Positions 4,558 to 60,866 of a stretch of 64,000 nt of DNA are shown one piece after another; the stretch's first letter is position 1; every line of letters begins with the position of its first letter. The stretch is from the NCBI GenBank assembly GCA_037443035.1, contig JBBIPC010000003.1, forward strand, positions 79,952-143,951, written 5' to 3'. The position numbers and the translations under genes are program-made. The notes under the pieces were generated by a model. That model was not told the origin of the DNA. It did no database searches and was given only the letters and a program-made list of their open reading frames with translations. Source of the DNA: Chthonomonadales bacterium (GTDB taxonomy: Bacteria; Armatimonadota; Chthonomonadetes; Chthonomonadales; CAJBBX01).

Positions 4558-6080
4558 TTCCTAGCTAGCAGCACCCAGTCGTTCGCATCCGGAATGACAA
4601 AGGTACGCTTTGCGCCGCCGGTCACCTTGATGCGGTTGGCAACCTTGCCTGTTCGTGGATCGATCCAACTGGCTGTCAGGGTGCCAGTCACCTTCTCCAA
4701 GTTCAAGGTCACGGCGTCCCCTGATGGCGAATACGCCACGTAGCACTGCCCCTCGTCCGCCAGGCAGATGCCTGTACTCGAAGCTTCCGGCACAGGACTC
4801 ATGCGCCAGTACGGCAACGACTGAATGAGATCGCCCATGACCTTCAGGAACGGAAACAGGCGCCCGGATGGCTTCGTGGCAGCACCAAGCTCGCTAAAGG
4901 TCTTGCCCACGTCACCACGACGCTGCCACCGACGTGGTGGCACGACCTCGTCGGCGTAGTTGATCTGGCCGCCGCTCAATGCTATCGTCCACGCGGCCTT
5001 TCGCATGTTATCTACGTCGAGACCCGCATCCTCCTGGTACAGGTTACCCTCCCATAGGCACTCGTGGGCCAGGATGGGTTTGGGCACGCGACGGTGGAGA
5101 CCGACGAACCATGTGTACTTCGTTGCGTTCCAGTCGGTGAGCTTGTCCTGCACCGTATGATAAGAGAACCACTCTGCCCTTTGAACCGTCACAGAGCTGG
5201 CCTTCAAGGAATGAACACTCGCGACGTGTCGGCCCGCATCTAGCTCCCTCAGACGCGCACCGACCCGGAGGATGTGCTCCTCTGAAAAGCCCTCTTCCCA
5301 TTCGGAGGTGGGCTGAAACGTCGCGTTCCAGTAACCACTCCATCGGGCCACCCAGTACCGCAAGAACAGGTCTTCGGCATCCCGCGTGGCTATCTTCGGC
5401 ATGCCATTCGTGCCACCGAAGAGGTTGAACGGGATGAGCACCATTCCACGTCTGCCCATGGCCGCAACGACGCGGTCCAGCGCCCTCCACTCAGCCAAGT
5501 TGAAGCGACGAAAGTCCGTCTTGCCTCCGGCTCCGGTCTCCCATAGGATCCTGTCGGGCGGCAAGAGATGCGGGCCGACGATCGTGTTGAAGTGCTGATT
5601 CTGCAGATACCGCAGCGTTCGGTCGAGGACCTCGGGCGACAGAGATTCGGCGTACCACAGATGAAAAGCCCGGACGTAGAAGGGTGTTCCATCGGCATGC
5701 TCGAACCATAGCGGGTTCTTCAACGACACCCGCAGTGGTCCATGCTCCCTCCCGCGGTTACAACGGAAGGCCCCGCTTCCGCCAGCAGCACCATCCGAGA
5801 ACCGAGCCTCGTACCGCCACACGCCGAGTTCGTCAGGCATGAAACGTAGTCTCCAGGTTCCGTTGCCATCGTAGAAGCCCTCGGTGGTCATCCGCTGGCC
5901 AGACGGAGCCGTGAAGACCGCATCCAACGAGACCTCTGTGAAGGGATTCGCGTAGATGCGGCTGTTGCTGAAGGCTGTCTCGAACAGCCCCCATTTCGAG
6001 ACAGACTGCTTCGGCGGCTCGGCCACCGCATGCGATGTGACCAGGGCGAGCACCGCAACGAACACCCCCCAGCCCACCAT
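4554..6080 (-). CDS. DUF5060/DUF4038-type (GH140-like) putative glycoside hydrolase
   Basis: The ORF track gives 4554..6227. I prefer Met-50 (MVGWGVFVAVLALVTSHAVA, signal-like) at 6080, which removes the overlap with 6125..6556. FTAPSGQRMTTEGFYDGNGTWRLRFMPDELGVWRY matches my memory of DUF5060. A cellulase-like region and a C-terminal beta domain follow. Confidence 0.7.
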   Translation of the reverse strand: MVGWGVFVAVLALVTSHAVAEPPKQSVSKWGLFETAFSNSRIYANPFTEVSLDAVFTAPSGQRMTTEGFYDGNGTWRLRFMPDELGVWRYEARFSDGAAGGSGAFRCNRGREHGPLRVSLKNPLWFEHADGTPFYVRAFHLWYAESLSPEVLDRTLRYLQNQHFNTIVGPHLLPPDRILWETGAGGKTDFRRFNLAEWRALDRVVAAMGRRGMVLIPFNLFGGTNGMPKIATRDAEDLFLRYWVARWSGYWNATFQPTSEWEEGFSEEHILRVGARLRELDAGRHVASVHSLKASSVTVQRAEWFSYHTVQDKLTDWNATKYTWFVGLHRRVPKPILAHECLWEGNLYQEDAGLDVDNMRKAAWTIALSGGQINYADEVVPPRRWQRRGDVGKTFSELGAATKPSGRLFPFLKVMGDLIQSLPYWRMSPVPEASSTGICLADEGQCYVAYSPSGDAVTLNLEKVTGTLTASWIDPRTGKVANRIKVTGGAKRTFVIPDANDWVLLARK

Positions 6081-6124
6081 GCCGTGCGTACCGGTGAATG
6101 GGGCTTCGGCCTGGACCTCCGGCC

Positions 6125-6556
6125 CTAGAGATGCAGGATGTTCACATCTCCCCATTTGTGCCTGAGGTACTCGGCCACTAGCCTCCGATGGCACTTGTGT
6201 GCTAGGTCCTCGCTGCAGAGCAAGCACGCCTCATTGAAACGCTCTCGATCGAGGTTCTCCACCGCGCGATCTTTCATGAGCTCGATGAATCGGGCTGCGT
6301 AGCCTGGCCAATCCACGCGCCGTTTTCGATAGTCGGTCAACAGCTCCTGCGTGGGGGCGAGATCAGGAATGTGCTCGTACCCGATCTGCAGAATGGCCTC
6401 TAGGAAGAACTCCAGGTCATCTTTCTTGGCGAAACCGGCGAGCTGCGATACGTTGTTGAGGCGAACGTCCACGATCTTGCGCACACCGGCATTGCGAAGG
6501 CGATTGAAAAAGCACCTTGCCGTGGTTCCTGTGTACCCGATGGTAAAGATGTTCAT
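6125..6556 (-). CDS. DUF488 domain protein (short subfamily)
   Basis: 143 aa. MNIFTIGYTG, VDVRLNN and CLLCSEDLAHKCHRRLVAEYL are DUF488 (YeaO-like) hallmarks. The start overlaps the upstream stop by 4 nt. Confidence 0.8.
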   Translation of the reverse strand: MNIFTIGYTGTTARCFFNRLRNAGVRKIVDVRLNNVSQLAGFAKKDDLEFFLEAILQIGYEHIPDLAPTQELLTDYRKRRVDWPGYAARFIELMKDRAVENLDRERFNEACLLCSEDLAHKCHRRLVAEYLRHKWGDVNILHL

Positions 6557-7182
6557 GCTCCAGGCCCCCTTCCCGCGTGGCGATGTCGCCGACGTGAGAC
6601 ATCATATGCGATTCTCTCAGCTTGACGAGCGTACGCTTCGGCGACGATTTCTTCCCTGCTCCTGAAGAGATCGTACTCCGGCAGTCTCTGTTCTCGCACC
6701 ATCCGTCCCACAGTATCCTCGTGCTCCTCGAGACTGCCATCGGCAAGAATGTGCACGACTCTGACGTCAAGGGACGCCATATGCCGTGCGATGAGGAGTG
6801 TACGATGGCAGGATAGGGGATCCTTCTCGGCACACATGAGCGCTGGCGTGTGTTCTCTCAATAGCTGCAGAAGACGCCGCACACCTTCCCGAAACGGAAC
6901 GCTCGCCTCGACACGGTCGTACTCGACCCTGCCATCCTCATAGCACGCTGGGTCGCGCGGTCGTCCACCTAGCTCGTCGCCGAGATAGTAATACGCAAGG
7001 CCGCTGCGTGCCAGCAAGGCGCTGAACCGCTCCCTATCGAACTGCGGGTTGTGCTGGCTGTAAGGATGCGATCGTACGTCCACGATCGCCGTAACACCAT
7101 GCCTCCGTACCATGCGGACGAAATCCTCGGCCTGGTGGTTAGAGTGTCCGACGGTGTATAGAGTGCTCAACAGCCCGCTCAT
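6553..7182 (-). CDS. DUF488 domain protein (long subfamily with C-terminal extension)
   Basis: LYTVGHSN, IVDVRSHPYS and CAEKDPLSCHRTLLIARH are DUF488 hallmarks. The ATG at 7182 is preceded by GGAGGGG. An alternative ATG at 7209 has a weaker RBS. Confidence 0.8.
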   Translation of the reverse strand: MSGLLSTLYTVGHSNHQAEDFVRMVRRHGVTAIVDVRSHPYSQHNPQFDRERFSALLARSGLAYYYLGDELGGRPRDPACYEDGRVEYDRVEASVPFREGVRRLLQLLREHTPALMCAEKDPLSCHRTLLIARHMASLDVRVVHILADGSLEEHEDTVGRMVREQRLPEYDLFRSREEIVAEAYARQAERIAYDVSRRRHRHAGRGPGA

Positions 7183-7218: not shown

Positions 7219-7971
7219 TCAGCTCTCACGTGAGGACTCGTCGCGCAACAATGCGGCAAACTCCAAGCGTAGTCGATCTACAAACTCCTTGGTCCCAAGA
7301 GCCTGCGTGACACTCTGCGACGTGATGACTGCTGCAGCGAGCTTGTAGGCGTAGCCATGGAAGGGTTCTCCAAGACTGATGCACAGCAGCGCGTCGTCCA
7401 TAGAGTACACGCTCCCCGCTTCCCAGTCTTGCTTCCGAATCTGCGGATCGGTCACCACGAGCTTGTAGTGCTCGCCACAGAGATCGAACGAGGCTCGAAT
7501 ACGTTGTTTGCTCCAGCCCCGCAGCTGTTCGTACGTGGCCTGGAGTTCCACATTCTCCGGCCGAACGAGGTACAGCGACCTCGATAAACCCCGCAGACAT
7601 TCCTCTGGCACTCGGTCATTGTACCCACCGGAGCTCGAGTCTCCGTTCAGCCACAGAGGTCCTTCGGGAGACTCGACAAGCTTCCCCAGTTCCTCGCATG
7701 TCATGTAGCCAGCCCTCCTCCAATCACCGCTGGCTATCACGTGGTTCTCGGTGTGATGGCGGAAAGGTGCGTGGGAAGCAACGGGAACCTCGACGATGTG
7801 GGAAGGCAGAAACTGCCAGTAGTAACTCGTCGGCACAGGTCCCCCAGCTTCATCTGCTACCAGCCGGATCCACGGCCCGAAGCCCTGGTCGGTGACAAGC
7901 CGACCAGCCACACACCGGCCACCGTCCCGCTTCGAGTTCGCCAGACATACCAACTTCCGGTACTCCCCCAT
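7219..7971 (-). CDS. Uncharacterised 250-aa protein with N-terminal KLVCLANSKRDGGRCVAGR motif (possibly a dual-OB type family; name uncertain)
   Basis: Clean ORF with coding-like bias on the same strand, immediately upstream of the two DUF488 genes. No enzymatic motif recognised. Confidence 0.7.
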   Translation of the reverse strand: MGEYRKLVCLANSKRDGGRCVAGRLVTDQGFGPWIRLVADEAGGPVPTSYYWQFLPSHIVEVPVASHAPFRHHTENHVIASGDWRRAGYMTCEELGKLVESPEGPLWLNGDSSSGGYNDRVPEECLRGLSRSLYLVRPENVELQATYEQLRGWSKQRIRASFDLCGEHYKLVVTDPQIRKQDWEAGSVYSMDDALLCISLGEPFHGYAYKLAAAVITSQSVTQALGTKEFVDRLRLEFAALLRDESSRES

Positions 7972-26976: not shown

Positions 26977-27852
26977 CTACTTCAGGTACTTCTCGAACCA
27001 ATCGGCCAGCACAGCAGCCTCGCTTTCGATTCCAGGCCAGCCGTGAGCCTTGCCCGACCTCACCTCGAGTTTGCACGGCACTTTCAACTCTTCCAGCTTC
27101 GCTATCAGGCGCTGGGACTGCTGGATCGGTACGAGCTGATCTGCATCGCCGTGGATGATGAGGGTAGGCGGCATGTGCTCGAGGTCGCCGTACATGGGTG
27201 AGAGCGAGCGTGCCAGTTTCTCCAGTTCGTCGGGAGGGGTCTTGTCCGTGATGCCGAACGCCGGCCAGAACACGCGAAGCATGGGAATGCTCAGAGCGGA
27301 CTGTCCGTCCTTACCGTAGTTCAAGAAATCCGTGGGTGGGAAGAGGCAGGCTATGGCCTGAACGCGGCTGGAGGCACGATCCACCGGATCTTTCGCGTCC
27401 TGTGGCCCGGGACCGCCGTACGCCCCCATCATCAAAGAGAGATGACCGCCTGCGCTGCCGCCGCAGATGCCGAGTTTGTCGGGGTTCACCCCCCACGTGG
27501 CAGCATTGGTTCGGATGAAACGCACGGCACGATGGATGTCCTCGATAATCTCCGGTAGCGTGAATTTGGGCTGGGAACCATGTACCACTTGAAACACGGT
27601 CATGCCGCGGGAAGTGAACGGTTCGGCTAGGGCGGGGTTGATGGCATCATGGTTGGAAACCCAGCCGCCGCTCACCATCCAGATCACACCGATACCGTTG
27701 GGCTTCTCCGGCTGGAACACGTCCATCGTGCAAGCCACGCCAAACTTGTGCCGATAGACGACATCGCGTATCCGCTTCTGCTCCGCTTGCACGCCTGCGG
27801 AGAGCACGAGGAGCGCGCCGAAGAGTATCCCTAGAAAGCGTCGTCTCGTCAT
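26977..27852 (-). CDS. Secreted alpha/beta hydrolase (esterase/lipase type)
   Basis: Signal-like MTRRRFLGILFGALLVLSAGVQA, nucleophile elbow GGSAGGH, and the HGDAD acid/His region. Confidence 0.8.
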   Translation of the reverse strand: MTRRRFLGILFGALLVLSAGVQAEQKRIRDVVYRHKFGVACTMDVFQPEKPNGIGVIWMVSGGWVSNHDAINPALAEPFTSRGMTVFQVVHGSQPKFTLPEIIEDIHRAVRFIRTNAATWGVNPDKLGICGGSAGGHLSLMMGAYGGPGPQDAKDPVDRASSRVQAIACLFPPTDFLNYGKDGQSALSIPMLRVFWPAFGITDKTPPDELEKLARSLSPMYGDLEHMPPTLIIHGDADQLVPIQQSQRLIAKLEELKVPCKLEVRSGKAHGWPGIESEAAVLADWFEKYLK

Positions 27853-28059
27853 GATGAACCTCCCTGAAGCCTATGGATCGTCGTTACCTTCGACGCAAGC
27901 CAGGATGTCTCCTACCAACAAGAAATGCCGCCTAGTATCGTCTGTGGTTGTAGGAGTTGCGTGGGAACGTCACGAAGGTCTTGTGCATTACGTATCGAGT
28001 CGCCGCGCATTACCGGATGTTGCGCAACGGTTGTCATCTGAGCTCGAGGAGCATAGGGC

Positions 28060-30312
28060 ATGTCCGATTCACCAAACGAGCACTTACCCCTTTCGCCAGA
28101 GGCTGAGAAGCTCTGCACCACGGCCCTTTACAAGGCCCCACACGGCTCCGATCCAAACACGCTCCAGTGGGTACTCGCCATCGCCGAGCTTTTTCCTGAC
28201 TCGCTTGCGCCATTCGTCCCCAAGGCGCAGGTTCCCAGCCTGCGGCAGAGCATCCGTGAGAGCCTCAAACATGCTGAGGGAGGACCTCTGCTGACGAAAT
28301 TGGATGTCGTCGTTGCTGCGAGTGCTCTTGCTGCCGAAGAGGGAGCCAAGGAACTCAGCGTGGCGCACATGAGCAAGGCGATCGTAGAGAAAGCACAGCC
28401 CCTGCTCGAGGAGCTGGTGTCCAAAGAGGAATCCTCGCACCCAGAAACACTGGACCTGGACACGGACGACGAGGAGGAGCCAAGTGCAGAAGGTCTACGA
28501 CCTTTCAGTCCAGCAGAAGTCTTCGCTCCGTCCCCGGAAGTCGTAATCCGCCGGAGCGAGAGGCCCTCGTCCTCTCGGCGTGCCCCGCGAGCCAGTGCGA
28601 AGCATCCGATGCTGGACCGGTTCGCCGTGGATCTCACCCAAGCGGCCAAGGATGGCAAGCTTACGCCGGTCGTGGGCAGGGAGACCGAAATTGGTCTCGT
28701 CCTCGAGACGCTCTGCAAGACTACGAAACGGAATCCTGCACTGGTGGGCCAGGCAGGCGTTGGCAAGACGGCCATTGCCGAGGGCGTTGCTATGCGCATT
28801 GCCGCAGGCGACTGCCCCGAGATGCTGCGGAACGCACGTATCTACCTCCTCCAAGCGGCCTCCCTTGTAGTTGGGATTCAGAACCCGGCCGAATATGCTG
28901 AACGCGTGCAGCAGCTCATCAAGGAAGCGTCAGACCCTGATGTGATCCTGTTCGTGGACGAATTTCACTCCGTGCTCGAGAGAGGCATGGCTTTCGAACA
29001 GGACCTTGTCACGCTGCTGAAACCTGCGCTGGCCCGAGGAGAGATCGCGTGCATCGCCGCAACGACGGACGATGAGTACCGAAGGATCGTGGAATCGGAC
29101 AGAGCACTGGCCCGGCGATTTCAAGCCATTCGTATCGGGGAAATGAGCCACAACCAGACGCTGCAGGTTCTGCGCACACATGGCGAACGCATCGGGGTGG
29201 AACGCAAGGTTGCCATTCCCGAGGAGGTTCTGGTTCGCGCCCTGGACTTGGCCGGTGACCGGATGCCGAACCGCCGGTTTCCTGACAAGGCCGTGGACGT
29301 CCTCGAGCAGGCCGTCGCCCACGCCGTCATCCGAGGCCGGGATCGCGTGGATGTTAGCGATGTAGCCGATGTCGTGGAACGGTTGACCGGCGCACCGGCC
29401 GATACAGCCGCATCCTTGGACGCTCTCGCGATGGCTCTGCGGGAGGAGCGGCTTCTCAGCCCAGATGAGGTGGAGGCGCTCATCGCGAAGCTGACCGTAG
29501 CCATGGAGGGACTGGACATCTGGCCGGAACGTCCGAACGCCGTCATCATGCTCTATGGCCCCGCCAGTGCGCTCGCAGATCGGATGAGCGCCGTGCTCGC
29601 TCGTCACCTGGCCGGCTCCGAGGACAGGGTGGTGGATATGGACTTCTCCTTCATGACGCATCCCGGCGACCTCAGCCGGCTTGTCGGAGCTGGACCCTCC
29701 TACATCGGCTACGGCGAGGAGCTGCCGATCCACGCTCTCATTCAGTACCCCTGGAGTGTCTTCCTTTGCCGCAACGTGGACCTCTGCTATCCGTCCATCC
29801 TGACTGCTCTTATCAACGCTCTCCGGCGAGGCGCGATCGTGGACGGCATGGGTAGGTCCATCCGGCTCTGCGACTGCGTAGTGCTCGTTACCGTGGGCGA
29901 CGAAAGGAGCCGTAGCCGGAGTGCTCCCATCGGGTTCGTGCCACGGGCTCCTGCGGACGACGCAGAGACTCCTATACCCGACACCGTCCGACCCGAGCTG
30001 CAGGAGCTATGCACCATCATCGTATCGAGACTCGCAGAATCGTCAACGATATCCGAGAGCTTCATCATGGAACGACTTCTGCCCGACCTAGCCAAGCGCT
30101 ACAGGGCACGTGGTCTCGAGGTGGAATTCGACAACAGCGTCGCAGCATGGGCTGCGGCGCGTTTCAAGAGCGAGCAAAACGAGCACATTCTTGGCGACAA
30201 GCTAGCGGCCGCCATCGGGCGGATCCTGAGACCTTACCTGCCCCGATCGGGCACAGTACATGTCCGGGTCGAGGCCGTGAATTCCGATCTCCGAGTCGAA
30301 GCCGTGCGCTAA
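28060..30312 (+). CDS. ClpA-like Hsp100 AAA+ ATPase with intact D1 and degenerate D2 module
   Basis: 750 aa. D1 has Walker A GQAGVGKT, Walker B ILFVDEFH and DRALARRFQ. In D2, GPASALADR replaces GPxGxGKT, FLCRNVDL replaces the hhhhDE Walker B, and TVGD replaces sensor-1 TxN. There is no M-domain. An IGF tripeptide (SAPIGFVP) sits where the ClpA IGL loop lies. Confidence 0.85.
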   Translation: MSDSPNEHLPLSPEAEKLCTTALYKAPHGSDPNTLQWVLAIAELFPDSLAPFVPKAQVPSLRQSIRESLKHAEGGPLLTKLDVVVAASALAAEEGAKELSVAHMSKAIVEKAQPLLEELVSKEESSHPETLDLDTDDEEEPSAEGLRPFSPAEVFAPSPEVVIRRSERPSSSRRAPRASAKHPMLDRFAVDLTQAAKDGKLTPVVGRETEIGLVLETLCKTTKRNPALVGQAGVGKTAIAEGVAMRIAAGDCPEMLRNARIYLLQAASLVVGIQNPAEYAERVQQLIKEASDPDVILFVDEFHSVLERGMAFEQDLVTLLKPALARGEIACIAATTDDEYRRIVESDRALARRFQAIRIGEMSHNQTLQVLRTHGERIGVERKVAIPEEVLVRALDLAGDRMPNRRFPDKAVDVLEQAVAHAVIRGRDRVDVSDVADVVERLTGAPADTAASLDALAMALREERLLSPDEVEALIAKLTVAMEGLDIWPERPNAVIMLYGPASALADRMSAVLARHLAGSEDRVVDMDFSFMTHPGDLSRLVGAGPSYIGYGEELPIHALIQYPWSVFLCRNVDLCYPSILTALINALRRGAIVDGMGRSIRLCDCVVLVTVGDERSRSRSAPIGFVPRAPADDAETPIPDTVRPELQELCTIIVSRLAESSTISESFIMERLLPDLAKRYRARGLEVEFDNSVAAWAAARFKSEQNEHILGDKLAAAIGRILRPYLPRSGTVHVRVEAVNSDLRVEAVR

Positions 30313-30363
30313 CACAGCCCATGGCCCAGATGGGCCAATTCCAACACCACGGAGGTGCACAGT

Positions 30364-30984
30364 ATGGGTACCGCAGTAACAATCGAGGTCTTGCGTCAGC
30401 ACCTGGAGGATTTCGGCTGGTCCCGCTACCGGGTGACGCCGGAACCTGGCGAACAAGAAGGACTCATTTTCACGGGCTACATCGGCGAACTCGATCGCCT
30501 TCCGCACACGGTCATCATTGACCCCATGGTGGAGAAGGGTGTGCTCCGGATTTTCTCCCCAGACGTGGCCGTCGCGCCAGTGGACAAGACGGACCCGGAC
30601 AGGCTACATGAACTCGTCTACACCGTAGCTGCGCTGAATACCCGGTCGGTGCTCGCTTCCTTCGGCTACGATCCGAGCGACGGAGAGGTCTCGATCGCCG
30701 TGGCCATGCCCATCGAAGAGAACGACATCAGCTTCGAGCAATTCAAGCGGGCCATGGAGGCTGTAATCTGGGGCATTGGCACGTACGGCAGAGGCTTGCG
30801 CGGTATTGTAGATGGCACTGCCAAGGCCAAGGATGTGCTCAGCATTGGCCAAACCGGCCCATCGCCGGCCGAACTGGAAGTGCTCAGGCAGCTCCTGGAG
30901 GCGCTTGGGGAGAGACTGGCGGAGCGTCGAGTATCCCCATCGGACGAGGACGACAGCGAGGAGGAACAACCGTCCAGGTCCTGA
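30364..30984 (+). CDS. YbjN-like (T3SS-chaperone-like fold) protein with acidic C-terminal tail
   Basis: The ATG at 30364 lies 8 nt after GGAGG. The layout and segments (LRIFSPDVAV..., AALNTRSVLASFGYDPSDGEVSIAV) resemble the YbjN family from memory. The tail is SPSDEDDSEEEQPS. Confidence 0.55.
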   Translation: MGTAVTIEVLRQHLEDFGWSRYRVTPEPGEQEGLIFTGYIGELDRLPHTVIIDPMVEKGVLRIFSPDVAVAPVDKTDPDRLHELVYTVAALNTRSVLASFGYDPSDGEVSIAVAMPIEENDISFEQFKRAMEAVIWGIGTYGRGLRGIVDGTAKAKDVLSIGQTGPSPAELEVLRQLLEALGERLAERRVSPSDEDDSEEEQPSRS

Positions 30985-31380: not shown

Positions 31381-34362
31381 TCAGTGAGTGTACTTGGCTA
31401 GTCCCTGGACGAGCCTGGTCACTGTATCCCGGTACAGAGCGTCGGCAGCCTGGTCGGTGGCAGGCGGCAGGGCTGGCAATCTGCCACTGGCCTTGAGGCT
31501 CTGCCGCATTCCGGCGGCGGCGGCGCATTCGAGCGCCAGGCGAATGTGGGCTGCCTCGGTGGTATCGCCGAAACCCGCGCTGACAAGCGACGCCAGACGC
31601 TCCCGCAGCGAACCCACTGCTTCGCGCAGATCGTCCGGCGCTGCACCCTCGAGGGCTGGAACAGGATCGGGTCCATAGGCGAGGAAATCCTGGTCGGGCA
31701 CGGTACCTCCCATGCCAATGACAATCCTCGCGTCGTCGGGCAAAGCGCCCTCGCTGAGGGTGATGAACGTGCGAGAATGGCGTCGCCAGCGTTTTCCGTT
31801 GATCCAGACACCTGTCACAGGTCCTTGCCCCACGGTCGCCAGCCAGAGCCGCTTGCGGCCGAACCGGATCGGAAAGCGCTGCTCCATCTGCAAGATCGAG
31901 GGCGGCACGTGCGGAATCAGCGTAAGGGTATCTGCCCGATACACGTACTCGAATAGCCCCCTGATCATAGCGGCCGGCGGCCCGAATGCGTCGTACGTGA
32001 GGTTCAACGGCTCGCCGGGCTGGTAGACACTGTTGCCGCACTCGGTCAGTGGGTTGTCCATCCGAAAACGCCTGGCGAAGGTGAGGAGTTTCTCCATGGA
32101 TCGGCGCGCATCACTCCACCAGCCCATCCGGTAATACGCCAGTATCATCCGAGCCTCGCACGTGGACCAGTGCCCTCCGTTCACCCACGTACCAAAGGTC
32201 CACAGCCCTTCGGGCCGTTCGTACATGTCGTCATAGGACGGATAGTTCGGCAGGATAAAGGCATGGGGACGGAGCCCAGGGATGCTGGCAATCTTCGACA
32301 GTATCCGCCTCGCGAGGGCGTCGTCCACAACGCGTAGGCAAACGGCGTCGTGGTTGGGCGAGGTCTCGAGATAGCCGTGCTTGTCAGCGCCATAGACTCC
32401 GTGACGCACGCCATCGGGATCGACCGAGCGTACGAAGTAGCCCTCAGGTTCGAGGAGCGCTGCAAGCCCTCGTTTGCTCGCTACGCGCCGACGCTCGTAT
32501 AGCGCTGCCTGTTGCTTCCTGCCCGCGAGCTTCTCTAGCTCGATGAGCCGATCCAGAGCAGCGATGGTGGTAATGGAGAGGCCCGAGAGGTAGGCCATGC
32601 CGTACGTGCCGTCGGGCTTCCTCCACCCGGAATAGCTCGGCGCCAGCAGGTTTCCAGCCGGGCCTGCGAGGTACAGATTGTTCTTCGGATCTCGACGTGA
32701 TTCGAGGAAGTTCGCCGTTCGCTCCAGCTTAGGGAGGTAGCTGGCGATCGCGCCCGCATCCCTGCTGATCAACAGAAGCTCGGCCTGCATGAGCAGCCCG
32801 GCGGCAGCGAACTCCACGCCCCAGTCGTGTAGTTCCACCCGCCCATCTCCCTGCTTGGCAATGAACATGCCTGGAGCCGCGGCGTCACACAGCGCGCCGT
32901 CGGGAGGGACCCACCGGAACTCTCGGAAAGGACGGAGGGTCTTCCCATCTCCCATCTGGTCGAACCAGAGGTCCTGGGAGTTCTGAAGAAAGGACGTCAG
33001 TGGCTCCGTCAAGAACGGCAGCGCGGCGTACGTTGTGCCGTAGCTATTCTGGATCCACCACGCGTTCCACGTCGGCCCTTCCACGAACCCGTTCCATGCT
33101 GGCGTGTACAGCATAGGCAGGTTCTGATACTCGGCGTCCGGCGAGAACATCCGCCGGGCGATGTCCAGCAGCTGCAAGTACTCGACATCGCCCCTGCCTT
33201 TGAAGAATCTTCCTGCGAACGATGGTGCGCCCTGCAATGGTCTGTCCCTTCGCTCTCTCCACATGCGTTCTAGCGCATCGATCCTAGCGGTTCCCTCGCC
33301 GATGGTCGGGCATAGCCAGCCCCCTTCGTCATGCTCATTCCAGGCGTAGATCAGCATGACGCGAGCGGGACACGCAGATGGATTCGCCACGACCCAGTCG
33401 GCGGCTTCCCGGACGTGAGCAGCGAGTTCCTGGGGCGTTGGAGCCGCGTAGTAGCGGTGCATTCCTTCGCCTGCCTTCTGCCATGGTTCCCAGGGATGGG
33501 GGCGCTCGATGCGCGGACGTCTGTCCCAACCCGCCATGGCAGTAGGTACGACCTGGACCCCCAGGTAGCGCGCCTCGTTCCAGAATCGCCTCGCCACGTC
33601 GCGAAGCTCCTGGTAAGTGCTCTCGTTGCCGCCATTGCCCGGGATCGCGTAGGCACTGATGGCGTCTGCACCGATGGTCTCGGCAAGCTGGCGCGCACGC
33701 TGAGGCGTGAAATCCATCAGGACGATGTACGGATCGCCCGCACCTGCCTTCCGGACTTCCTCGCGAAAACCCTGCCACAGCTTACGCGCCTGCTCCGGCC
33801 CGCCCCATGCTTCGATATGGGCATCCTGAACAAAGCCGAGAAAGAAGAGCGGTCTGCGTCCAGCCACCCTGCAGTAGTTCGGCTCTCGCATCAGTCTGAC
33901 AAACCGCTGCATCCGCTCATGGAACGCCGTTGCGTTCCCAGCGCGACCGGCCTCCAGGATCATGGCGAAGCGAATGTCTTTCCGATGCCTGCTGGACAGG
34001 TGGAGCTTCAGCGCATCGGAAAGGGGATCCTCCGGATCGTAAGCAACGTACGCCCAATAGTCTATGCCCGCCCGCTTGGCTTCGGCAATCTCGCGATCCA
34101 CAATCGCCTGGGTGTACGGACCTATTTCGATGCGTTCGTCCGATAGGATGCGCGCGAAGAACGGAGCCCTGTGCTGGTAACGCTTGGGACTCAAGCATTC
34201 CTCGAGAACTTTCGCCACGATGCCACGGGAGCTGCCATACCACCCGTCCCAACGTATGGCGCCGACCAACGGCTTCTCCATGGCCCCAGCGCACGGGACC
34301 GACATGATGACACCAGCCATAGCGAACAGCAATGCTTCGATACGAAGGATCATGGGAACCAC
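31381..34362 (-). CDS. Large secreted two-domain protein, putative glycoside hydrolase (N-terminal TIM-like region plus C-terminal alpha/alpha-barrel-like region), family unassigned
   Basis: 993-aa ORF with a signal-like N-terminus. N-terminal segment: AIRWDGWYG...AKRAGIDYWAYVAY. C-terminal segment: RDPKNNLYLAGPAGNLLAPSY...MILAYYRMGWW...AFGPPAAMIRGLFEYVY. Confidence 0.7.
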   Translation of the reverse strand: MVPMILRIEALLFAMAGVIMSVPCAGAMEKPLVGAIRWDGWYGSSRGIVAKVLEECLSPKRYQHRAPFFARILSDERIEIGPYTQAIVDREIAEAKRAGIDYWAYVAYDPEDPLSDALKLHLSSRHRKDIRFAMILEAGRAGNATAFHERMQRFVRLMREPNYCRVAGRRPLFFLGFVQDAHIEAWGGPEQARKLWQGFREEVRKAGAGDPYIVLMDFTPQRARQLAETIGADAISAYAIPGNGGNESTYQELRDVARRFWNEARYLGVQVVPTAMAGWDRRPRIERPHPWEPWQKAGEGMHRYYAAPTPQELAAHVREAADWVVANPSACPARVMLIYAWNEHDEGGWLCPTIGEGTARIDALERMWRERRDRPLQGAPSFAGRFFKGRGDVEYLQLLDIARRMFSPDAEYQNLPMLYTPAWNGFVEGPTWNAWWIQNSYGTTYAALPFLTEPLTSFLQNSQDLWFDQMGDGKTLRPFREFRWVPPDGALCDAAAPGMFIAKQGDGRVELHDWGVEFAAAGLLMQAELLLISRDAGAIASYLPKLERTANFLESRRDPKNNLYLAGPAGNLLAPSYSGWRKPDGTYGMAYLSGLSITTIAALDRLIELEKLAGRKQQAALYERRRVASKRGLAALLEPEGYFVRSVDPDGVRHGVYGADKHGYLETSPNHDAVCLRVVDDALARRILSKIASIPGLRPHAFILPNYPSYDDMYERPEGLWTFGTWVNGGHWSTCEARMILAYYRMGWWSDARRSMEKLLTFARRFRMDNPLTECGNSVYQPGEPLNLTYDAFGPPAAMIRGLFEYVYRADTLTLIPHVPPSILQMEQRFPIRFGRKRLWLATVGQGPVTGVWINGKRWRRHSRTFITLSEGALPDDARIVIGMGGTVPDQDFLAYGPDPVPALEGAAPDDLREAVGSLRERLASLVSAGFGDTTEAAHIRLALECAAAAGMRQSLKASGRLPALPPATDQAADALYRDTVTRLVQGLAKYTH

Positions 34363-37676: not shown

Positions 37677-38519
37677 TTACGGCTGCTGCCCGCGGCATGG
37701 GGAGTCCCAGCTCGGATCGTAGAGCCAATCCTGCGGCCCGCTGTCGTACCACTTGATCATGCCAGGGAACAGGACGTTGCGACAGTAGTTGAGCTGGCCC
37801 TTGACCATGGCCTTGGCATGGCCGTCGCCGAAGACCATGTTGGCCGACTGCGTATGCCGGTAGCGAGGCAGGTAGGTATTGCACTGAGGCCATCCGGCGG
37901 CATCGCAGTTGGGGCTGGAGCCGTCGGCCTCGAACTTGGCACCCGAGTTGGGACCGGTGAAGATAGGCGGCCATGTGGCGCCACCATGCCACCAGAAGTC
38001 CTCGGTCATGCCCTCGAGGCTCCCGTTGCCGTCGGTGCCGGTTCCCACTTCCGTGACAAGGACGATCTCAGCCGGACGATTGAGATTGGCCAGACCGACA
38101 GCCCCCCAGAAATTGCCGTTGGCCATGGTGGGATAGTGGATGATGCCCGAGTGGGCGCCGTAGATCCTCTTGGCGTTGGCTCTGCTGGGACAACTGAACA
38201 GACCGCCGACCACGGTGCCATCTCCAACGGTTACCGAGCCGAGGCTACCGTTCTTGATGTAAGGCAGGATGGCCATGCGCCAGTCGGTACGACTGCCGTC
38301 GGGGTTCAGGATGGCGGCATAGGGGAAGAGCTCATCGTAGTCCTGTACATACATCATGATGGCCGTACCCATCTGCTTCATGTTGGACAGGCACGAGATC
38401 GCTCGAGCCTTCTCCCTTGCTTGGGCGAAGACAGGGAACAGGATCGCCGCCAGGATCGCGATGATCGCGATCACAACGAGCAGTTCGATCAGGGTGAAGC
38501 CCGACCGTGTTGACTTCAT
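37677..38519 (-). CDS. Prepilin-type N-terminal cleavage/methylation domain protein, DUF1559 family (module B)
   Basis: ATG at 38519. It has [49 protein letters not shown] and a C-terminal FGDGHAK. Confidence 0.85.
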
Positions 38520-38592
38520 TGTCTTGCTCCTTTCGTGGTGTGGAATGCCGATTGATGTCGGCACCGGTGGTGGGATGGGTGTAGTACGCCTC

Positions 38593-38608
38593 GCGCATTC
38601 GAACGCAT
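38593..38608. promoter_or_regulatory. Candidate LacI-2 operator O2 (minus strand ATGCGTTCGAATGCGC)
   Basis: It has a palindromic TTCGAA core and matches 12 of 16 positions of the site at 39742-39757. It lies 74-89 nt upstream of the DUF1559 start at 38519. Confidence 0.45.
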
Positions 38609-38739
38609 AAAAGGCCAAAGAGGAGGGTGTGAGAGGGTGTTCGAGACTGTTGATGACTCTAGAGAGCGCCCGCCGTCCCGGAAGGATAGTCCGAGAGCGG
38701 TTGGCGCGCCGCCCACTGGAGTTGCGCTTGGCCGAGCGG

Positions 38740-47187: not shown

Positions 47188-47931
47188 ATGCAGCAATACC
47201 GCAAGCGATCAGGTTTCACCCTGATTGAGCTCCTGGTGGTCATAGCGATCATCGCAATCCTGGCCGCCATTCTGTTCCCCGTATTCGCCCGAGCACGGGA
47301 GCAAGCCCGAAAGACGGCTTGTCTCTCGAACCTCAAGCAGCTCGGTCTTGGCTTTCTCATGTACGCCCAGGACTATGACGAGCGGCTTCCTGGTGTCCGG
47401 TTCGGTGATGGCGCCGGACAGGGCTGGCCCTGGACCGTGTGGCAGGGGTCGGTGGATTGGACCGGCGTTTTCACCCATGCCGTCATGCCCTACCTCAAGA
47501 ACCGTGGTATCCTCCAGTGCCCCAGCGGCACTGAAGTAGATCGCTGGAGTGGGACGAACGGCCTTAGCTACTGCTACAACGAGTACATGTACAACCTGGA
47601 TCAGGGATGGTCCATGCTGTCCCGCGTAAGCGGCGTCCAGGTTGGCCCTTCCAACGTCTCCATGCTGTCCGAGTGCTTCTCGAGCGGCATCTACATGGAC
47701 TGGGAGGGTGGTGGACCTGCCTTGCCTGACGGCACCATCGATGGCCTGAACAGGATCCGCTACCACACGTGGAACCCTTGGATGCCGAATCACGAGGGCA
47801 CGAACCTCACCTACGTGGACGGCCATTCCAAGTTCATCGCCAAGGATGCCATCCGCAGCTACAGGATGCCGTCGGGATGGACGGACAACCGCCAGCGGCC
47901 CGTCGTGTACCCAGGTGCCACCGAGCCGTAA
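47188..47931 (+). CDS. Prepilin-type N-terminal cleavage/methylation domain protein, DUF1559 family (module C)
   Basis: [44 protein letters not shown], with a C-terminal YVDGHSK. Confidence 0.88.
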
Positions 47932-54720: not shown

Positions 54721-55821
54721 ATGAGAAGCCTGCTGAGCAAACCTACGCGAGCGATACTCGTGCTCGAGGATGGTTCCGTCTTCGAGGGACAGTCGTTCGG
54801 AGCCCAGGGACGTGCCTACGGCGAGGTCGTGTTCAACACGGGCATGACGGGGTACCAGGAGATCCTCTCGGACCCATCCTATGCGGGCCAGATCGTGACT
54901 CTTACCTACCCTCTCATCGGCAACTACGGCGCCAACAGTGACGACTTCGAATCCGGCCGGGTTCAGGTGGAAGGCTTCGTGGTCCGCGAGGCGTCAGAGG
55001 AGCCCAGCAACTGGCGTTCCAGAGGCACCATCCACGGCTTTCTCGAGCATCGTGGTATCGTCGGCATCCAGGGAATCGACACGCGTGCCCTCACGCGACG
55101 ACTCAGAGCGCAAGGCGTGATGATGGGCACGATTACGACCAATGAGACGCCTGCGGAAGCGCTGGACAGGGTGCGTCAGTCCCCCCGATACGCCTCCGTG
55201 GACTACGTCCGGCGGGTTTCCACGCGAGAACCCTACGAATGGCCTGCCGAAGGGGAGACCCGCTACCGCGTGGCACTCCTGGACTGCGGTGTCAAGTTCA
55301 ACATCATGCGTCATCTGGCGAAGCGGGGATGCCATGTCACCGTCTGGCCTTGCACCGCCACGGCCGAGGAGATTCTGGAGCGTCAACCCGATGGCGTCAT
55401 GCTCTCTCCGGGTCCCGGCGACCCTGCCAACCTCGGCTACCTCATCGCCACGGTACGCACCTTAGCCTATCGCATGCCCATGATGGGCGTCTGTCTTGGA
55501 AATCAGCTCGTGGGGTATGCATTTGGCAGTCGCACGTTCAAACTAAGGTTCGGACACCGTGGCAGCAACCACCCGGTGCGCGATCTCAACACTGGCCGTG
55601 TCTACATCACTTCCCAGAACCACGGCTACGCCCTGGACCCCAACGAGCTACGCGACGGCATGGAGGTGGCGCATATCAACCTCAACGACGGTACGGTGGA
55701 AGGACTGCGCCATCGCGAGCTTCCCGTCTTCACCATCCAGTACCACCCGGAGGCGTCGCCCGGCCCCCACGACAGCGCCTACTTCTTCGATCAGTTCGTC
55801 GAGCTCATGGCGAAGCGATGA
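54721..55821 (+). CDS. carA: Carbamoyl-phosphate synthase small (glutaminase) subunit
   Basis: 366 aa with LVLEDGSVFEG, the GATase nucleophile GVCLGNQL, and HPEASPGPHD. Confidence 0.95.
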   Translation: MRSLLSKPTRAILVLEDGSVFEGQSFGAQGRAYGEVVFNTGMTGYQEILSDPSYAGQIVTLTYPLIGNYGANSDDFESGRVQVEGFVVREASEEPSNWRSRGTIHGFLEHRGIVGIQGIDTRALTRRLRAQGVMMGTITTNETPAEALDRVRQSPRYASVDYVRRVSTREPYEWPAEGETRYRVALLDCGVKFNIMRHLAKRGCHVTVWPCTATAEEILERQPDGVMLSPGPGDPANLGYLIATVRTLAYRMPMMGVCLGNQLVGYAFGSRTFKLRFGHRGSNHPVRDLNTGRVYITSQNHGYALDPNELRDGMEVAHINLNDGTVEGLRHRELPVFTIQYHPEASPGPHDSAYFFDQFVELMAKR

Positions 55822-56498: not shown

Positions 56499-58294
56499 TG
56501 GCGAGGCGCTATTGCGATCGCAGGACGTTGGCCATCCTGGCTTGCGCAGCGGTAGTTATCGCCTCTGTGGCTCTCCGTTGTTACGCGCTCCGATCCGACC
56601 CGTACCCGCGACTGGACTGGAGCGCGGGACTGCTCACAGACGAGGGGTTCTACGTCCACAACGCGCGCAATCGAGTCCTGTTTGGGCGCGAACGAACGGA
56701 TGAGTTCAACAATATGCTCCTCTCGCCCTTGCTGCACCATGCACAGGTAGCCGTCTTCCGCCTGGCAGGTGTCGGTTCCGTGCAAGCACGTAGTATCAGT
56801 GTCGTCTGTAGCCTGGCCAGCATGGTTCTACTGTGGCTCGTGTTGAAGCCTCTCTTCGGCGTATACGTGGCATGGATCGCCGTGACACTGCTGGGTCTGG
56901 ACCATGTGCACCTGCTCTACAGCCGTATGGCTCTCATGGACCCCTTCGCGGCGTTCCTGGCAGTCATGGCATTCGCGTCCTTCGCACGAGCGACGCGACT
57001 TCAGGGAAGCTTGGCGACTTCGCTCCTATGGTACGGCTTTGGCGGCGCAGTCTTGGCCTTGGCCGTGCTGAACCGGTCGCTATGCATCTATCTCGTGCCT
57101 GCGCCCTTCATTGCCCTGGCAGCCATCCACGAGCGGCCACGGAGCTATGGAGCAGTCGTCTCGGGTATGGCGGTTGTCGTGGTCTTGTGGGCGGTCCTCT
57201 GGTGGGCTCCGCATCGGGCAGAGATCGCGCACATGAACCGCTACTATCGGCTGCATCAGGTACAGCCCGCCTCGCTGGCCAAGCTCTGGGACAACCTGCG
57301 TACAGGCGCGTTCGGCGATCACCGCGGGATCGGCCCCTATCTCTTCCGTCACACCCCCGTGCCGTTCGCGCTTTGCCTCCTGTACTTGGCCGCCCTGCCG
57401 CTCGGCATGCATCCGCAGTCCGAGAAGATGCACCCTTCGGCAACGCGGACTGACCGTTCTGCGCTATTCGCCAGGGCGTATCTGGTCACGTGGCTCCTGG
57501 GGGGATGGCTCGCCTTGTCGGCCTCGAACTACTCTCCGAGCCGGTATTACGTCACTACGTACCCTGCCATGATGGCGCTGGCAGCGCTCTGCGTAGGCGA
57601 GCTGGCAGAGAGAGTGCGTCACCTGAGCGGAGCGCACGTCATGGCCCGGTTGACGCGGTCCGCCCTCGGAGGCTTCCTCCTGTTCCACACCGTCCAGACC
57701 GTCGTGCACCGAGGTGGCGTGATCGCTCCTCTGGCGACGTGGCTCGTCCTCGTATCGATTCCCATTCTGGGCGCAGTCCTTCTCTGGAGGTGGCAGGGAC
57801 GCCCGGAACCGCTCGTCAGGGCTCCGGCCGCCGCACTACTATTGGGGCTCTGGCTCCTATCTAATGGCTACTGGTTGGGGGACTGGTCGAGAGGGATCGG
57901 CTACACGCAGTTCGCCATATCGCGAGAACTCCAGCAGATGCTTCCAAAGGGCTCCGTCCTTATCGGTGATGTGGCGCCGGGGCTATGCCTGGATAACCGT
58001 CACATGGTGGTGAACGTCATACCGGGCCTGTGCAACGGAGAACGTCCTGTGGAAACGTTCCGCGGGCGTCCCAGGTTCGTAGCCATTCTCGATGGTCGCT
58101 GGAAAGAGCGGTATTGGCTCCAGCGGTACCCAGCGCTCGTGCACCCGGCGCGCAGGCTGCTCTTACGGCGGGTCCTACGGTGGGACATTGGGGTGTATCA
58201 GGTCCAGGATGCGGCTGCGACCATGGAAAACCGGCGGTGCGCAGTCCGTAACGCGTATGCGCCAAGTAGCGGAGCAGGGAGTGTGTATGCCTAG
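56495..58294 (+). CDS. Polytopic membrane glycosyltransferase, ArnT/PMT-like (GT39/GT83 type)
   Basis: 599 aa with many TM helices. The N-terminal part is [29 protein letters not shown], containing a DE-like loop. The start overlaps the lepB stop. Confidence 0.7.
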
Positions 58295-60008
58295 AGATCC
58301 GTCTATCAAGAAGGTGATGGTCATCGGTTCGGGCCCCATCGTCATCGGGCAGGCAGCCGAGTTCGATTATGCAGGTACCCAGGCATGCCGCTCGCTTCGG
58401 GAAGAAGGGGTATCCGTTGTCCTTATCAACTCCAACCCCGCGACGATCATGACCGATCTCGAGATGGCGGATCGAGTTTATATCGAGCCTCTCGCAGTGG
58501 AGTTCGCCGAACGCGTTATCGCCCAGGAACGCCCGGACGGGCTTCTCCCGACTCTGGGAGGACAGACGGGGCTGAACCTCGCGACCCAACTCGCTGAGGC
58601 TGGCGTGCTGGATCGCTACGGCGTGCGCCTCCTCGGCACCCCTCTCGACTCCATCCGTATGGCAGAGGACCGGAACGAGTTCCGAGAACTGATGCGCCGT
58701 ATCGGCGAGCCCGTACCGGAGAGCTGGATCATCGAAGACGAGGCCATGCTCCCAGACATCGCTCAGAAGGGCATCTGGCCGCTCATCATTCGTCCGGCCT
58801 ATACTTTGGGCGGCACGGGAGGCGGTATCGCTCACAATGCCGACGAGTTGTTGGAAATCGGCAAGCACGGACTTTCGGTCTCCATGCGGCATCAGATCAT
58901 GGTGGAGCGTTGCCTACTCGGCTGGAAGGAGATCGAATATGAAGTCATGCGCGACGCCAACAATACTTGCATCACCGTGTGCAACATGGAGAACTTCGAC
59001 CCCATGGGCGTGCATACGGGAGACTCCATCGTGGTGGCTCCGTCCCAGACGCTGTCGGACAAGGAATATCAGCTGCTGCGCACGGCCTCGCTGAATATCA
59101 TCCGGAGTCTGGGCATCGAAGGCGGATGCAACGTGCAGCTCGCGCTGGATCCCGACAGCTTCCAGTACTACGTGATCGAAGTGAACCCGCGCGTGTCCCG
59201 TTCTTCGGCGCTAGCTTCCAAAGCCACGGGTTATCCGATCGCACGCGTGGCCGCCAAGATCGCCATCGGGTTGCACCTCGATGAAATCCAGAACGCCGTG
59301 ACGAAGAAGACGCTCGCATGTTTCGAACCAGCGTTGGATTACTGCGTGGTCAAGATCCCCCGCTGGCCGTTCGACAAGTTCCGCCAGGCTGACCGGCGCA
59401 TCACCACACAGATGAAGGCGACGGGCGAGGTCATGGCCATCGACAGAACGTTCGAGGCCGCATTGATGAAGGCCATTCGGAGCCTGGAAATCGGAGCCTA
59501 TGGGCTTACACGCAAGCGCATGAACGAGTTGTCCGATGTCCAGCTCGAAGAGGGGCTGGCCGTCCCCACGGACGAAAGGCTGTTCATCATCGCCGAGGCC
59601 CTGCGACGCGGCATGATGGTAGAGGAAATCCAGGCCTTGTCCCGCGTGGATTCGTGGTTCCTGAGGAAGATCGAGAGACTTGTCACTATGGAAACCCGCC
59701 TCAGGCTCGATGGCCGGAAGATCGCGGCGCTTGCTGAGACGCTCGATTCCGATGACCCAGCAGCCGACCTTCTGCGCGAGGCGAAGCGCTTGGGATTCTC
59801 GGACCGACAGATTGCCGAGTGCTCAGGCTTGAGCGAACGTCATGTACGGGATGTCAGGCGGGCGTTCGGCATCCGCCCTGTCTACAAGATGGTAGATACA
59901 TGCGCTGCCGAGTTCGAAGCCGAGACGCCCTACTTCTACTCGTGCTATGAACAAGAGGACGAGTACTTGGGCAGCCTAGGGGCCGTTCAGGAAGGAGCAA
60001 GGTCATGA
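58287..60008 (+). CDS. carB: Carbamoyl-phosphate synthase large subunit, N-terminal half (carboxyphosphate ATP-grasp plus oligomerisation domain)
   Basis: ATG at 58287 after GGAGCAGGGAG. It begins [26 protein letters not shown] and ends after about 573 aa, just past ...[24 protein letters not shown]. Confidence 0.92.
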
Positions 60009-60823
60009 GCGACACAAGCCAGGCGCAGGGCTACGTCCTGGCAACGGGCGACGAAGGGAAGGACCGTCTTGGACTTGTCGATGAAGTCCACGGCGCAGAC
60101 ACACGAGCGCTCCTGAAAAAGGCCGGCATTGCTCGCGGCATGCGCGTAGCCGACATCGGCTGCGGCGTTGGACTTGTGACCTGTACTCTGGCGCAGATGG
60201 TGGCGCCTGACGGTGAGGTCGTGGGCGTGGACATCAGCCCAGAACAGATCCAAGTCGCCCAGGGATTGGCTGAGCAGAAGGGGCTCAGCAACGTGCGCTT
60301 CGTCGTGGCCAGCGCCTACGACACCGGGCTGGAGGCAGGAAGCTTCGATGCCACGTACGCACGGTTCGTCTTGATGCACCTGGCGCGACCGGCAGACGCT
60401 CTGGCCGAGATGGCGCGTCTCCTCCGACCGAGTGGCACTCTCATCGTGGAGGATGGCGACTTCACATCGCCCTATTGCGTTCCCGCGTCGCCGGCGTATC
60501 TGAGGGCATTCGAGCTGTATCGGGAGGCCGTGCGACGCCAGGGGGCTGATCCGGAGATCGGTCCCTCGCTCATCGGCATGGTGATGAAGGCCGGCTTTCC
60601 GCGACTTGGGGTAGCGGTGGTCCAGCCGATACTCAAGGAGGGTGCCGCGAAACGTCTGCCAGAGTTGACATTGCTGGAAGCGGCACCGGAGATACTGGCG
60701 GCAGGCGCTGCAACCGAAGCGGAGATTCAGGCGATCGCCGCGGAAGTCCGCCGCCTTGCCGATGACGTCACCACGGAGTTCGGCATGGCGCAGATGACTC
60801 AAGTCTGGGCGACGAAACCATGA
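60005..60823 (+). CDS. Class I SAM-dependent methyltransferase inserted between the two carB halves
   Basis: ATGA overlap with the upstream stop. It has motif I ([10 protein letters not shown]), and VGVDIS and [14 protein letters not shown] follow. Confidence 0.85.
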
Positions 60824-60866
60824 GGCGCGGTACAGCAGAATCTAGGTAAGGGGAGAAAGCAAACCC

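Follow-up and report, generated by a model that had tools for sequence, protein, structure and literature searches.

Among the adaptors known for Hsp100 unfoldases, ClpS and MecA act at the N-domain and the entry of the first AAA+ ring (D1), and the short M-domain of ClpC is the contact for MecA and McsB. In Escherichia coli ClpA, most ATP hydrolysis (80–90%) takes place in the second AAA+ ring (D2), which is the chief unfoldase, and an engineered ClpA variant whose D2 is inactive cannot handle many substrates (PMC7568338). Analysis of a 64,000-nucleotide stretch of DNA from a Chthonomonadales bacterium of the Armatimonadota (contig JBBIPC010000003.1, positions 79,952 to 143,951; hereafter the window) has revealed a pair of genes on the forward strand, the first of which encodes a 750-residue Hsp100 protein of ClpA architecture with a D2 that appears catalytically dead (28060–30312), and the second a 206-residue protein with a fold shared by YbjN and type III secretion chaperones (30364–30984). 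The two genes form a conserved module and are probably one operon. The pair is clearly of the Hsp100 type and not a new kind of system, representing instead a distinct, widespread and coherent variant with its own cofactor. An initial sequence-only reading of the window, made without database searches, had not recognized the pairing as a described system; consistent with this, neither a Clp-YbjN pair nor a bacterial Hsp100 whose D2 is dead but bears the ClpP loop was found described in open-access papers and preprints, curated families or defence models.

An ATPase with a Degenerate Second Ring

The D2 module of the ATPase (residues 455–650; 29422–30009) is recognized by Pfam as AAA_2 with a marginal score of 28.7 bits, the other Pfam matches of the protein being AAA and AAA_lid_9. 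The loss of D2 catalytic motifs described in the sequence-only reading is borne out by alignment to Bacillus subtilis ClpC (by HMMER) and to E. coli ClpA (from NC_000913, by BLASTP). The canonical Walker A sequence GPTGVGKT is replaced by GPASALAD (within YGPASALADR, 29554–29583), without the Lys and Thr; the canonical Walker B sequence LLDEIEKAHP is replaced by LCRNVDLCYP (the FLCRNVDL segment, within SVFLCRNVDLCYP, 29755–29793), without the Asp-Glu; and the T(S/T)N of sensor-1 has become TVG, with Asn changed to Gly. The sensor-2 GAR motif is absent as well. The pore-1 loop of D2 is retained (GAGPSYIGYGEE, 29686–29721), GAPPGYVGY of the references reading GAGPSYIGY with the aromatic SYIGY kept; Y548 is nearly invariant and G550 invariant among family members. 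The IGF tripeptide (residues 624–626; 29929–29937), which had been placed at the position of the ClpP-docking IGL loop of ClpA, does align residue for residue with this IGL (617–619) and with VGF of ClpC, a correspondence in sequence only; G625 is invariant in the family, and residues 620–633 form a flexible loop of low predicted local distance difference test score (pLDDT) in an AlphaFold2 (AF2) model. This model, built with 50 homologs, has a pLDDT of 85.7, both AAA+ modules fold confidently in it, and Foldseek searches with it retrieve ClpC, ClpC1, ClpA and ClpB. Compared with a 95%-identical relative, D2 has a ratio of nonsynonymous to synonymous substitution rates (dN/dS) of 0.24, the same value as D1 and the partner gene, and is thus under purifying selection. 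Judged by its motifs and its modelled fold, D2 is predicted to be a structurally intact but catalytically dead ring.

The same features characterize a large family. Walker A and Walker B of D2 are degenerate, and sensor-1 and sensor-2 lost, in all of the 120 best homologs, which fall into a short group (~710–770 residues) that keeps the GYVGY pore loop and a hydrophobic-Gly-Phe/Leu (h-G-F/L) loop, and a long group (~880–980 residues; P0008–P0059 and others) in which the IGF-type loop and the pore tyrosine are both gone (GLIGS), implying that the loop is selected for where it is kept. In a sub-branch of the long group (P0050, P0057–P0059 and others), D1 is degenerate too (APEGTGRT, FFPDIH), and both rings appear to be catalytically dead. 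At the one long-group locus examined (L007:5001-7631), the upstream region (L007:2962-5001) holds a TelA-family gene and an unknown 230-aa gene, and no YbjN gene is present. When a profile of the D2 and C-terminal region was searched against 1.84 billion cluster representatives, 1051 proteins were retrieved at E<=1e-30. A motif census of the best 147 representatives (50%-identity clusters), 139 of which were evaluable, found a dead D2 in 130; the h-G-F/L tripeptide is present in 117 of these 130 and an aromatic D2 pore loop in 107. A rough neighbour-joining tree places all dead-D2 proteins in one clade, whose sister group consists of proteins of ~700–727 residues with a live D2. Labelled ATPase members come from Chthonomonadales/Chthonomonadaceae, Anaerolineaceae, Sericytochromatia/Tanganyikabacteria and one metagenome-assembled genome (MAG) labelled Hadarchaeum, and a scan of a genome collection with a narrow D2 alignment returned three true loci and one canonical ClpA. 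In the source annotations, the ATPase and its partner are called only "AAA family ATPase", "ClpC" or "YbjN domain-containing protein". A few proteins of the family are much extended at the N-terminus (P0186, 1174 aa; P0181, 930 aa); in P0186, the added part contains WD40/PD40 beta-propeller-like repeats, which precede the ATPase and may serve as another module for recognizing substrates.

The D1 module (residues 182–454; 28603–29421) has retained its catalytic motifs. Walker A GQAGVGKT (28747–28770), Walker B ILFVDEFH (28945–28968) and DRALARRFQ are present as originally read, and the columns of both Walker motifs, of sensor-1 AATT and of RRFQ in the last of these are invariant across 50 family members. 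A point missed by the sequence-only reading is that the pore-1 motif of D1, KYR in E. coli ClpA, is QNP in the window ATPase, and that the position of the Tyr is occupied by V, H or T in most relatives. D1 is preceded by a disordered linker (residues 127–181; 28438–28602) that is first acidic (DLDTDDEEEP) and then basic (RRSERPSSSRRAPRASAK), with a pLDDT below 50 over residues 127–174, and by an N-terminal domain (residues 10–125; 28087–28434) modelled as high-confidence helices. The two Clp-N-like repeats claimed for this region are borne out only weakly: the window ATPase by itself has no Pfam Clp_N match, but a profile of the family matches the N-domains of ClpC and ClpA (E 3e-6 to 1e-4), and weak Pfam Clp_N matches occur in some family members. 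Because of the profile matches, the domain is read, if only weakly, as a divergent Clp_N. The absence of an M-domain is confirmed, as the protein is colinear with E. coli ClpA over residues 165–701 (30% identity by BLASTP) without any insertion, and residues 405–468 of ClpC are left unmatched. The gene itself has a Shine-Dalgarno-like GAGGAG (28046–28051) 8 nt ahead of its ATG, and ends in TAA (30310–30312).

Comparison with curated NCBIfam models indicates that the window ATPase belongs to none of the Hsp100 equivalogs among them, its scores of about 295 bits lying far under cutoffs of 885–1417 and equally far from ClpB, ClpV and ClpA. It reaches 294.7 bits against the ClpA model TIGR02639 (cutoff 993.15) and 254.7 against NF008263 (cutoff 1350), 298 bits against ClpB/Hsp104 (TIGR03346, cutoff 1232), a family from which it also differs by the missing M-domain and the IGF loop, and 297.6 bits against ClpV/TssH (TIGR03345, cutoff 884.95); no type VI secretion genes were found among the window open reading frames (ORFs) scanned. 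With E. coli ClpA it shares the order of N-domain, D1 and D2, the missing M-domain, the position of the IGL/IGF loop, the GYVG-type D2 pore loop and a small cofactor gene adjoining the ATPase gene, which in ClpA is that of the adaptor ClpS; unlike in ClpA, the D2 Walker A and B, sensor-1 and sensor-2 motifs and the KYR pore motif of D1 are gone, and the cofactor is a downstream protein of the YbjN/type III chaperone fold and not ClpS, no clpS being nearby. ClpC, which is found in Firmicutes and Actinobacteria and is served by MecA and McsB, gives the best PDB matches by both sequence and structure, shares the position of its VGF loop, and has N-domains that the family profile recognizes, and dependence on a dedicated cofactor is a plausible further likeness; in contrast, the window ATPase does not have the short M-domain inserted in D1, its D2 is predicted to be dead, and its partner has no relation to MecA. 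AAA+ proteins with two rings, one of them catalytically inactive, are also known elsewhere, such as NSF (D2) and PEX1/PEX6 (D1). These and the plant SMAX1/D53 Clp-like proteins resemble the present case in that one ring serves as scaffold or in assembly and the other works, but they belong to other AAA+ families and to other cell biology.

The Chaperone-Fold Partner and Its Linkage to the ATPase

The two ORFs, the 51-nt gap and the GGAGG that had been noted between them are all present. The partner ORF shares strand and reading frame with the ATPase, may start at 30355 or 30364, and ends at 30984 (209 or 206 aa); its ATG at 30364 is separated by 51 nt from the TAA of the ATPase, and the GGAGG ribosome-binding site (30351–30355) lies inside this spacer, 8 nt ahead of the ATG. 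The protein consists of a fold core (residues 1–150), a clade-specific helix (168–190) and an acidic tail (191–206; SPSDEDDSEEEQPSRS). The description of the protein as YbjN-like with an acidic tail holds, since Pfam YbjN matches it, albeit marginally (23.7 bits against a cutoff of 22), and its AF2 model (pLDDT 82.6) retrieves by Foldseek DR_1245, ExsC, E. coli YbjN, CesT, SicP and SycE, with a probability of 1.00 for the structures 4h5b, 3kxy, 6vu7, 5z38 and 1jyo, which argues for the alpha-beta-alpha fold of type III chaperones. The fold and the membership in Pfam YbjN/TY-Chap1 are therefore shared with YbjN, DR_1245 and the class I type III chaperones ExsC, CesT, SicP and SycE; unlike them, the partner occurs in linkage with a Clp-type ATPase and in some cases as a fusion with it, the partners of the window clade add a C-terminal helix and an acidic tail, and no type III secretion genes occur among the window ORFs scanned or at the family loci examined. 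TY-Chap1 has been defined as a family of peptide-binding chaperones akin to YopN/CesT and YbjN (PMC9503650).

In more distant relatives, the partner is a protein of 146–174 residues with clear matches to TY-Chap1 (E 1.2e-14) and YbjN (E 6e-9), which is only ~17% identical to the partners of the window clade. When profiles of the two partner types were compared directly, the match did not reach significance (E 0.27). The partner of locus L038 matches both types by BLASTP (1e-26 to 1e-33, and 6e-7 / 8e-5), and because of this intermediate sequence the window-clade and TY-Chap1-type partners are judged to be homologous. Labelled partner homologs are known from Anaerolineae, Ca. Amarolinea, Eremiobacterota, Abditibacteriales and WOR-3.

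The pairing is widely conserved. A YbjN/TY-Chap1 gene lies directly downstream of the ATPase in approximately 17 of 19 independent loci, and the arrangement, with spacings from stop/start overlap to ~200 nt, is seen in the window and in L001–L004, L008–L010, L012–L015 and L035; among metagenome loci with enough downstream DNA, 11 of 12 show it. Whether the YbjN-like gene would be a conserved neighbour had been proposed as a check, and the answer is positive for close and remote relatives alike: the pair is present on the same strand in the 95%-identical relative and in relatives at 52% and 49% identity, and in those at 36–39% identity the neighbour is the 146–174-residue protein mentioned above. 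Three Chthonomonadales genomes contain the pair, one of them a MAG of Chthonomonas calidirosea, and so does Candidatus Amarolinea dominans. All-against-all ORF clustering of 22 loci found no third recurring gene. A histidine kinase considered as a recurring neighbour at three loci proved to reflect only shared PAS/GAF domain similarity.

In two proteins, P0203 and P0226, the dead-D2 ATPase and a C-terminal TY-Chap1-like domain form a single polypeptide, as indicated by a Pfam TY-Chap1 match (33 bits, P0203) and by BLASTP matches to free-standing partners (E 1e-11 to 1e-17). Each fusion is known from one contig; as the two are very unlike each other and the free-standing partners, a sequencing artefact is unlikely. 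A different candidate, P0137 (243 aa), in which residues 1–131 correspond to a window-type partner and the rest to a histidine-kinase HATPase_c domain, is a probable assembly chimera because its contig is so short (1021 nt). In the live-D2 sister group, P0285 has intact GPTGTGKT, LLLDEI and LGF motifs and a TY-Chap1 gene 5 nt downstream, and the partnership must therefore predate the loss of D2 catalysis. Synteny, close gene spacing and fusion thus all tie the partner to the ATPase. These observations also bear on the idea that D2 was lost in a decaying paralog whose neighbour is there by chance, for which the motif loss alone would speak; it is contradicted by the size of the family, the dN/dS of D2, its confident fold, the conserved neighbour and the fusions, and can hardly be credited.

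Proposed Mechanism and Alternative Roles of the Partner

The sequence-only reading had suggested a D1-only unfoldase with a dedicated chaperone-like partner, a reading that fits the available sequence evidence, with the qualifications that the pairing arose before D2 catalysis was lost, that the D1 pore tyrosine is absent and that the Clp_N assignment is weak. In its present form, to which we assign a probability of roughly 0.5, it proposes a hexamer that is powered by D1 and docks on ClpP, in which D2 forms a pseudo-ATPase ring and to which a chaperone-fold cofactor binds directly as adaptor or regulator. Hexamer formation, a motor restricted to D1, ClpP docking, direct binding of the partner and its role as adaptor are all inferred. 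Only D1 would hydrolyse ATP, and D2 would keep its AAA+ fold as a nucleotide-independent pseudo-ATPase that supplies the channel-lining aromatic pore loop and the flexible h-G-F/L loop for ClpP docking. The hexamer would cap ClpP by its IGF loops, and ATP turnover in D1 would feed loosely folded or pre-unfolded polypeptide through the passive D2 channel into ClpP. Since D2-inactive ClpA fails on many substrates, a D1-only enzyme would be expected to take weakly folded or pre-unfolded clients, and such clients are what a peptide-holding chaperone would supply. The partner would bind the ATPase directly as its dedicated cofactor, most likely as an adaptor that holds extended client segments and hands them over, or alternatively as a regulator of ATPase activity or of ClpP docking. 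A broader version, according to which the family represents a new type of ClpP cap in several mostly uncultured phyla, with a passive nucleotide-free D2, power from D1 only and an obligate chaperone-fold adaptor, should be taken as tentative, with the odds somewhat against it; the labelled members behind this phylum spread belong to Armatimonadota, Chloroflexota, Eremiobacterota, Sericytochromatia and WOR-3.

Several observations weigh against the proposed mechanism. No clpP, clpS or clpX was found in the window by tblastn with the E. coli proteins, in agreement with the original remark on clpP and clpS, or at any family locus; clpP being never linked to the pair, the loop is the sole argument for coupling to ClpP. 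In most members, D1 does not have the canonical pore-1 tyrosine and aromatic pore loops are found only in the ATP-inactive ring, which makes it puzzling how a substrate would be gripped and moved and how D1 could drive those loops. The pairing is not universal either: L005 and L019 (one lineage, same contig) and L006 have no partner within 5 kb, and the partner homolog of L033 has no ATPase nearby. A mirror-tree test, in which the divergence of the ATPase domain by domain was compared with that of the partner, picked out no contact domain. Finally, in the fusions a short linker joins the chaperone domain to the C-terminal end of the ATPase, on the outer edge of the D2 tier and far from the N-domain/D1 entry, a geometry that speaks for regulation or a structural function no less than for an adaptor.

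This geometry leads to a different view of the partner, namely as a structural or regulatory component of the D2 tier: a chaperone-fold dimer bound near the C-terminal small domain would stabilize the ring without nucleotide or control its docking on ClpP, and the complex would unfold little processively, working mainly as a regulated cap or gate-opener of ClpP. Besides the position of the TY-Chap1 domain in the fusions, the absent D1 pore tyrosine and a D2 predicted to be unable to hydrolyse ATP would be in keeping with it, as would the conservation of the TY-Chap1-type partner, which exceeds 60% identity across phyla when the ATPase as a whole is only 36–40% identical to that of the window, as expected of an obligate structural subunit. 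However, the live-D2 sister already has the partner, so that the partner is not a compensation for the dead ring; moreover, its fold family is known for binding extended peptides, and the conserved D2 pore loop argues for polypeptide passing through the channel. We consider such a role unlikely.

An even less probable role, for which we see rather little chance, is ClpP-free export, in which the substrates of a type VII-like secretion system (FtsK/SpoIIIE and WXG100) would be held by the partner and stripped or unfolded by the ATPase. A precedent for such a hand-over would be the type III chaperone-ATPase pair or EccA and EspG of mycobacterial ESX type VII secretion, in which EccA, a cytosolic single-ring CbbX-type AAA+ protein with TPR repeats, is paired with the chaperone EspG. 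The suggestion comes from Ca. Amarolinea dominans (L035:1-5444, L036:1-5444), where the pair ends a co-directional cluster that begins with an FtsK_SpoIIIE protein gene and includes two small WXG100-like proteins (E 2.4e-5 and 2.5e-3), suggesting a type VII secretion-like locus, with an Amidase_3 gene and a LIM/DA1-like peptidase gene next in order; in addition, the closest solved folds of the partner are those of secretion chaperones. Both WXG100 matches, however, are under the Pfam cutoff, the arrangement concerns one lineage among ~20 loci, and no FtsK or WXG100 gene was found in the window or at the other loci. The likeness to EccA/EspG thus lies in an AAA+ ATPase associated with a substrate chaperone and in this one Chloroflexota locus; EccA itself is not a Clp protein. 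To our knowledge, the conserved h-G-F/L loop has no role outside ClpP docking, which also speaks against export.

Genomic Surroundings and Significance for the Family

Apart from the pair, the window contains housekeeping and carbohydrate-active genes, including many GFO_IDH_MocA oxidoreductase and glycoside hydrolase genes. Scans for promoters and terminators near the pair yielded nothing beyond shuffle expectation. The PADLOC defence models showed no meaningful match for either protein and a scan of viral contigs with the partner profile found no relatives, and hence the module is not evidently phage-borne or a defence system. A BD-FAE/Abhydrolase_3 esterase gene lies divergently upstream of the pair in the window (26977–27852, reverse strand) and in L001, L002 and L008, that is, in close Chthonomonadales-like relatives only, and its adjacency looks like local synteny rather than a part of the module. 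The next gene downstream, on the opposite strand, is a 993-aa ORF (31381–34362, reverse strand) with no Pfam match at E<=1e-5.

At other loci of the family, different neighbours have been observed. In a single lineage (L012:3305-3937, L013:3284-3937), a true Aat gene (43% identical to E. coli Aat, the leucyl/phenylalanyl-tRNA-protein transferase of the N-degron pathway) lies directly upstream of the dead-D2 ATPase, an arrangement that recalls the proximity of aat to clpS-clpA in E. coli. In the Chthonomonadales MAG locus L009, the pair is flanked by GmrSD-type restriction endonuclease and RAMP-superfamily (CRISPR-associated) genes (416–2224 and 5635–6978), which are found in no other locus.

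Elsewhere in the window, the large subunit of carbamoyl-phosphate synthase is encoded by two genes (58092–60008 and 60867–62468, together 58092–62468) with an S-adenosylmethionine (SAM)-methyltransferase gene (60005–60823) between the halves, and the small subunit is at 54721–55821. Three genes encode proteins with a prepilin-type N-terminal methylation motif and DUF1559 (37677–38618, reverse strand; 47188–47931 and 62586–63371, forward strand), a family much expanded in Planctomycetota-like genomes. A gene for a DuOB (dual OB-fold) domain protein (Pfam E 2.4e-50) is located at 7219–7971 on the reverse strand.

In work on ClpA, ClpB, ClpC and Hsp104, D2 is regarded as the main motor (PMC7568338), and the dead-D2 family runs counter to this in nature: across hundreds of sequence clusters, D2 catalysis appears to have been discarded while the pore loop and the docking tripeptide have been kept under selection. 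The family therefore offers a natural system for studying the work that a D1 ring can do alone, the transfer of force between tiers and the purpose of a pseudo-ATPase ring. The pairing and the fusions provide a testable function for a branch of the poorly understood YbjN superfamily, and connect AAA+ unfoldases with the secretion-chaperone fold in a setting other than secretion. Since the pair occurs in a MAG assigned to the named, cultured species Chthonomonas calidirosea, experiments should be feasible. If the family does represent a new type of ClpP cap, it would define a new class of Clp adaptors and would be a natural test of translocation by D1 alone.

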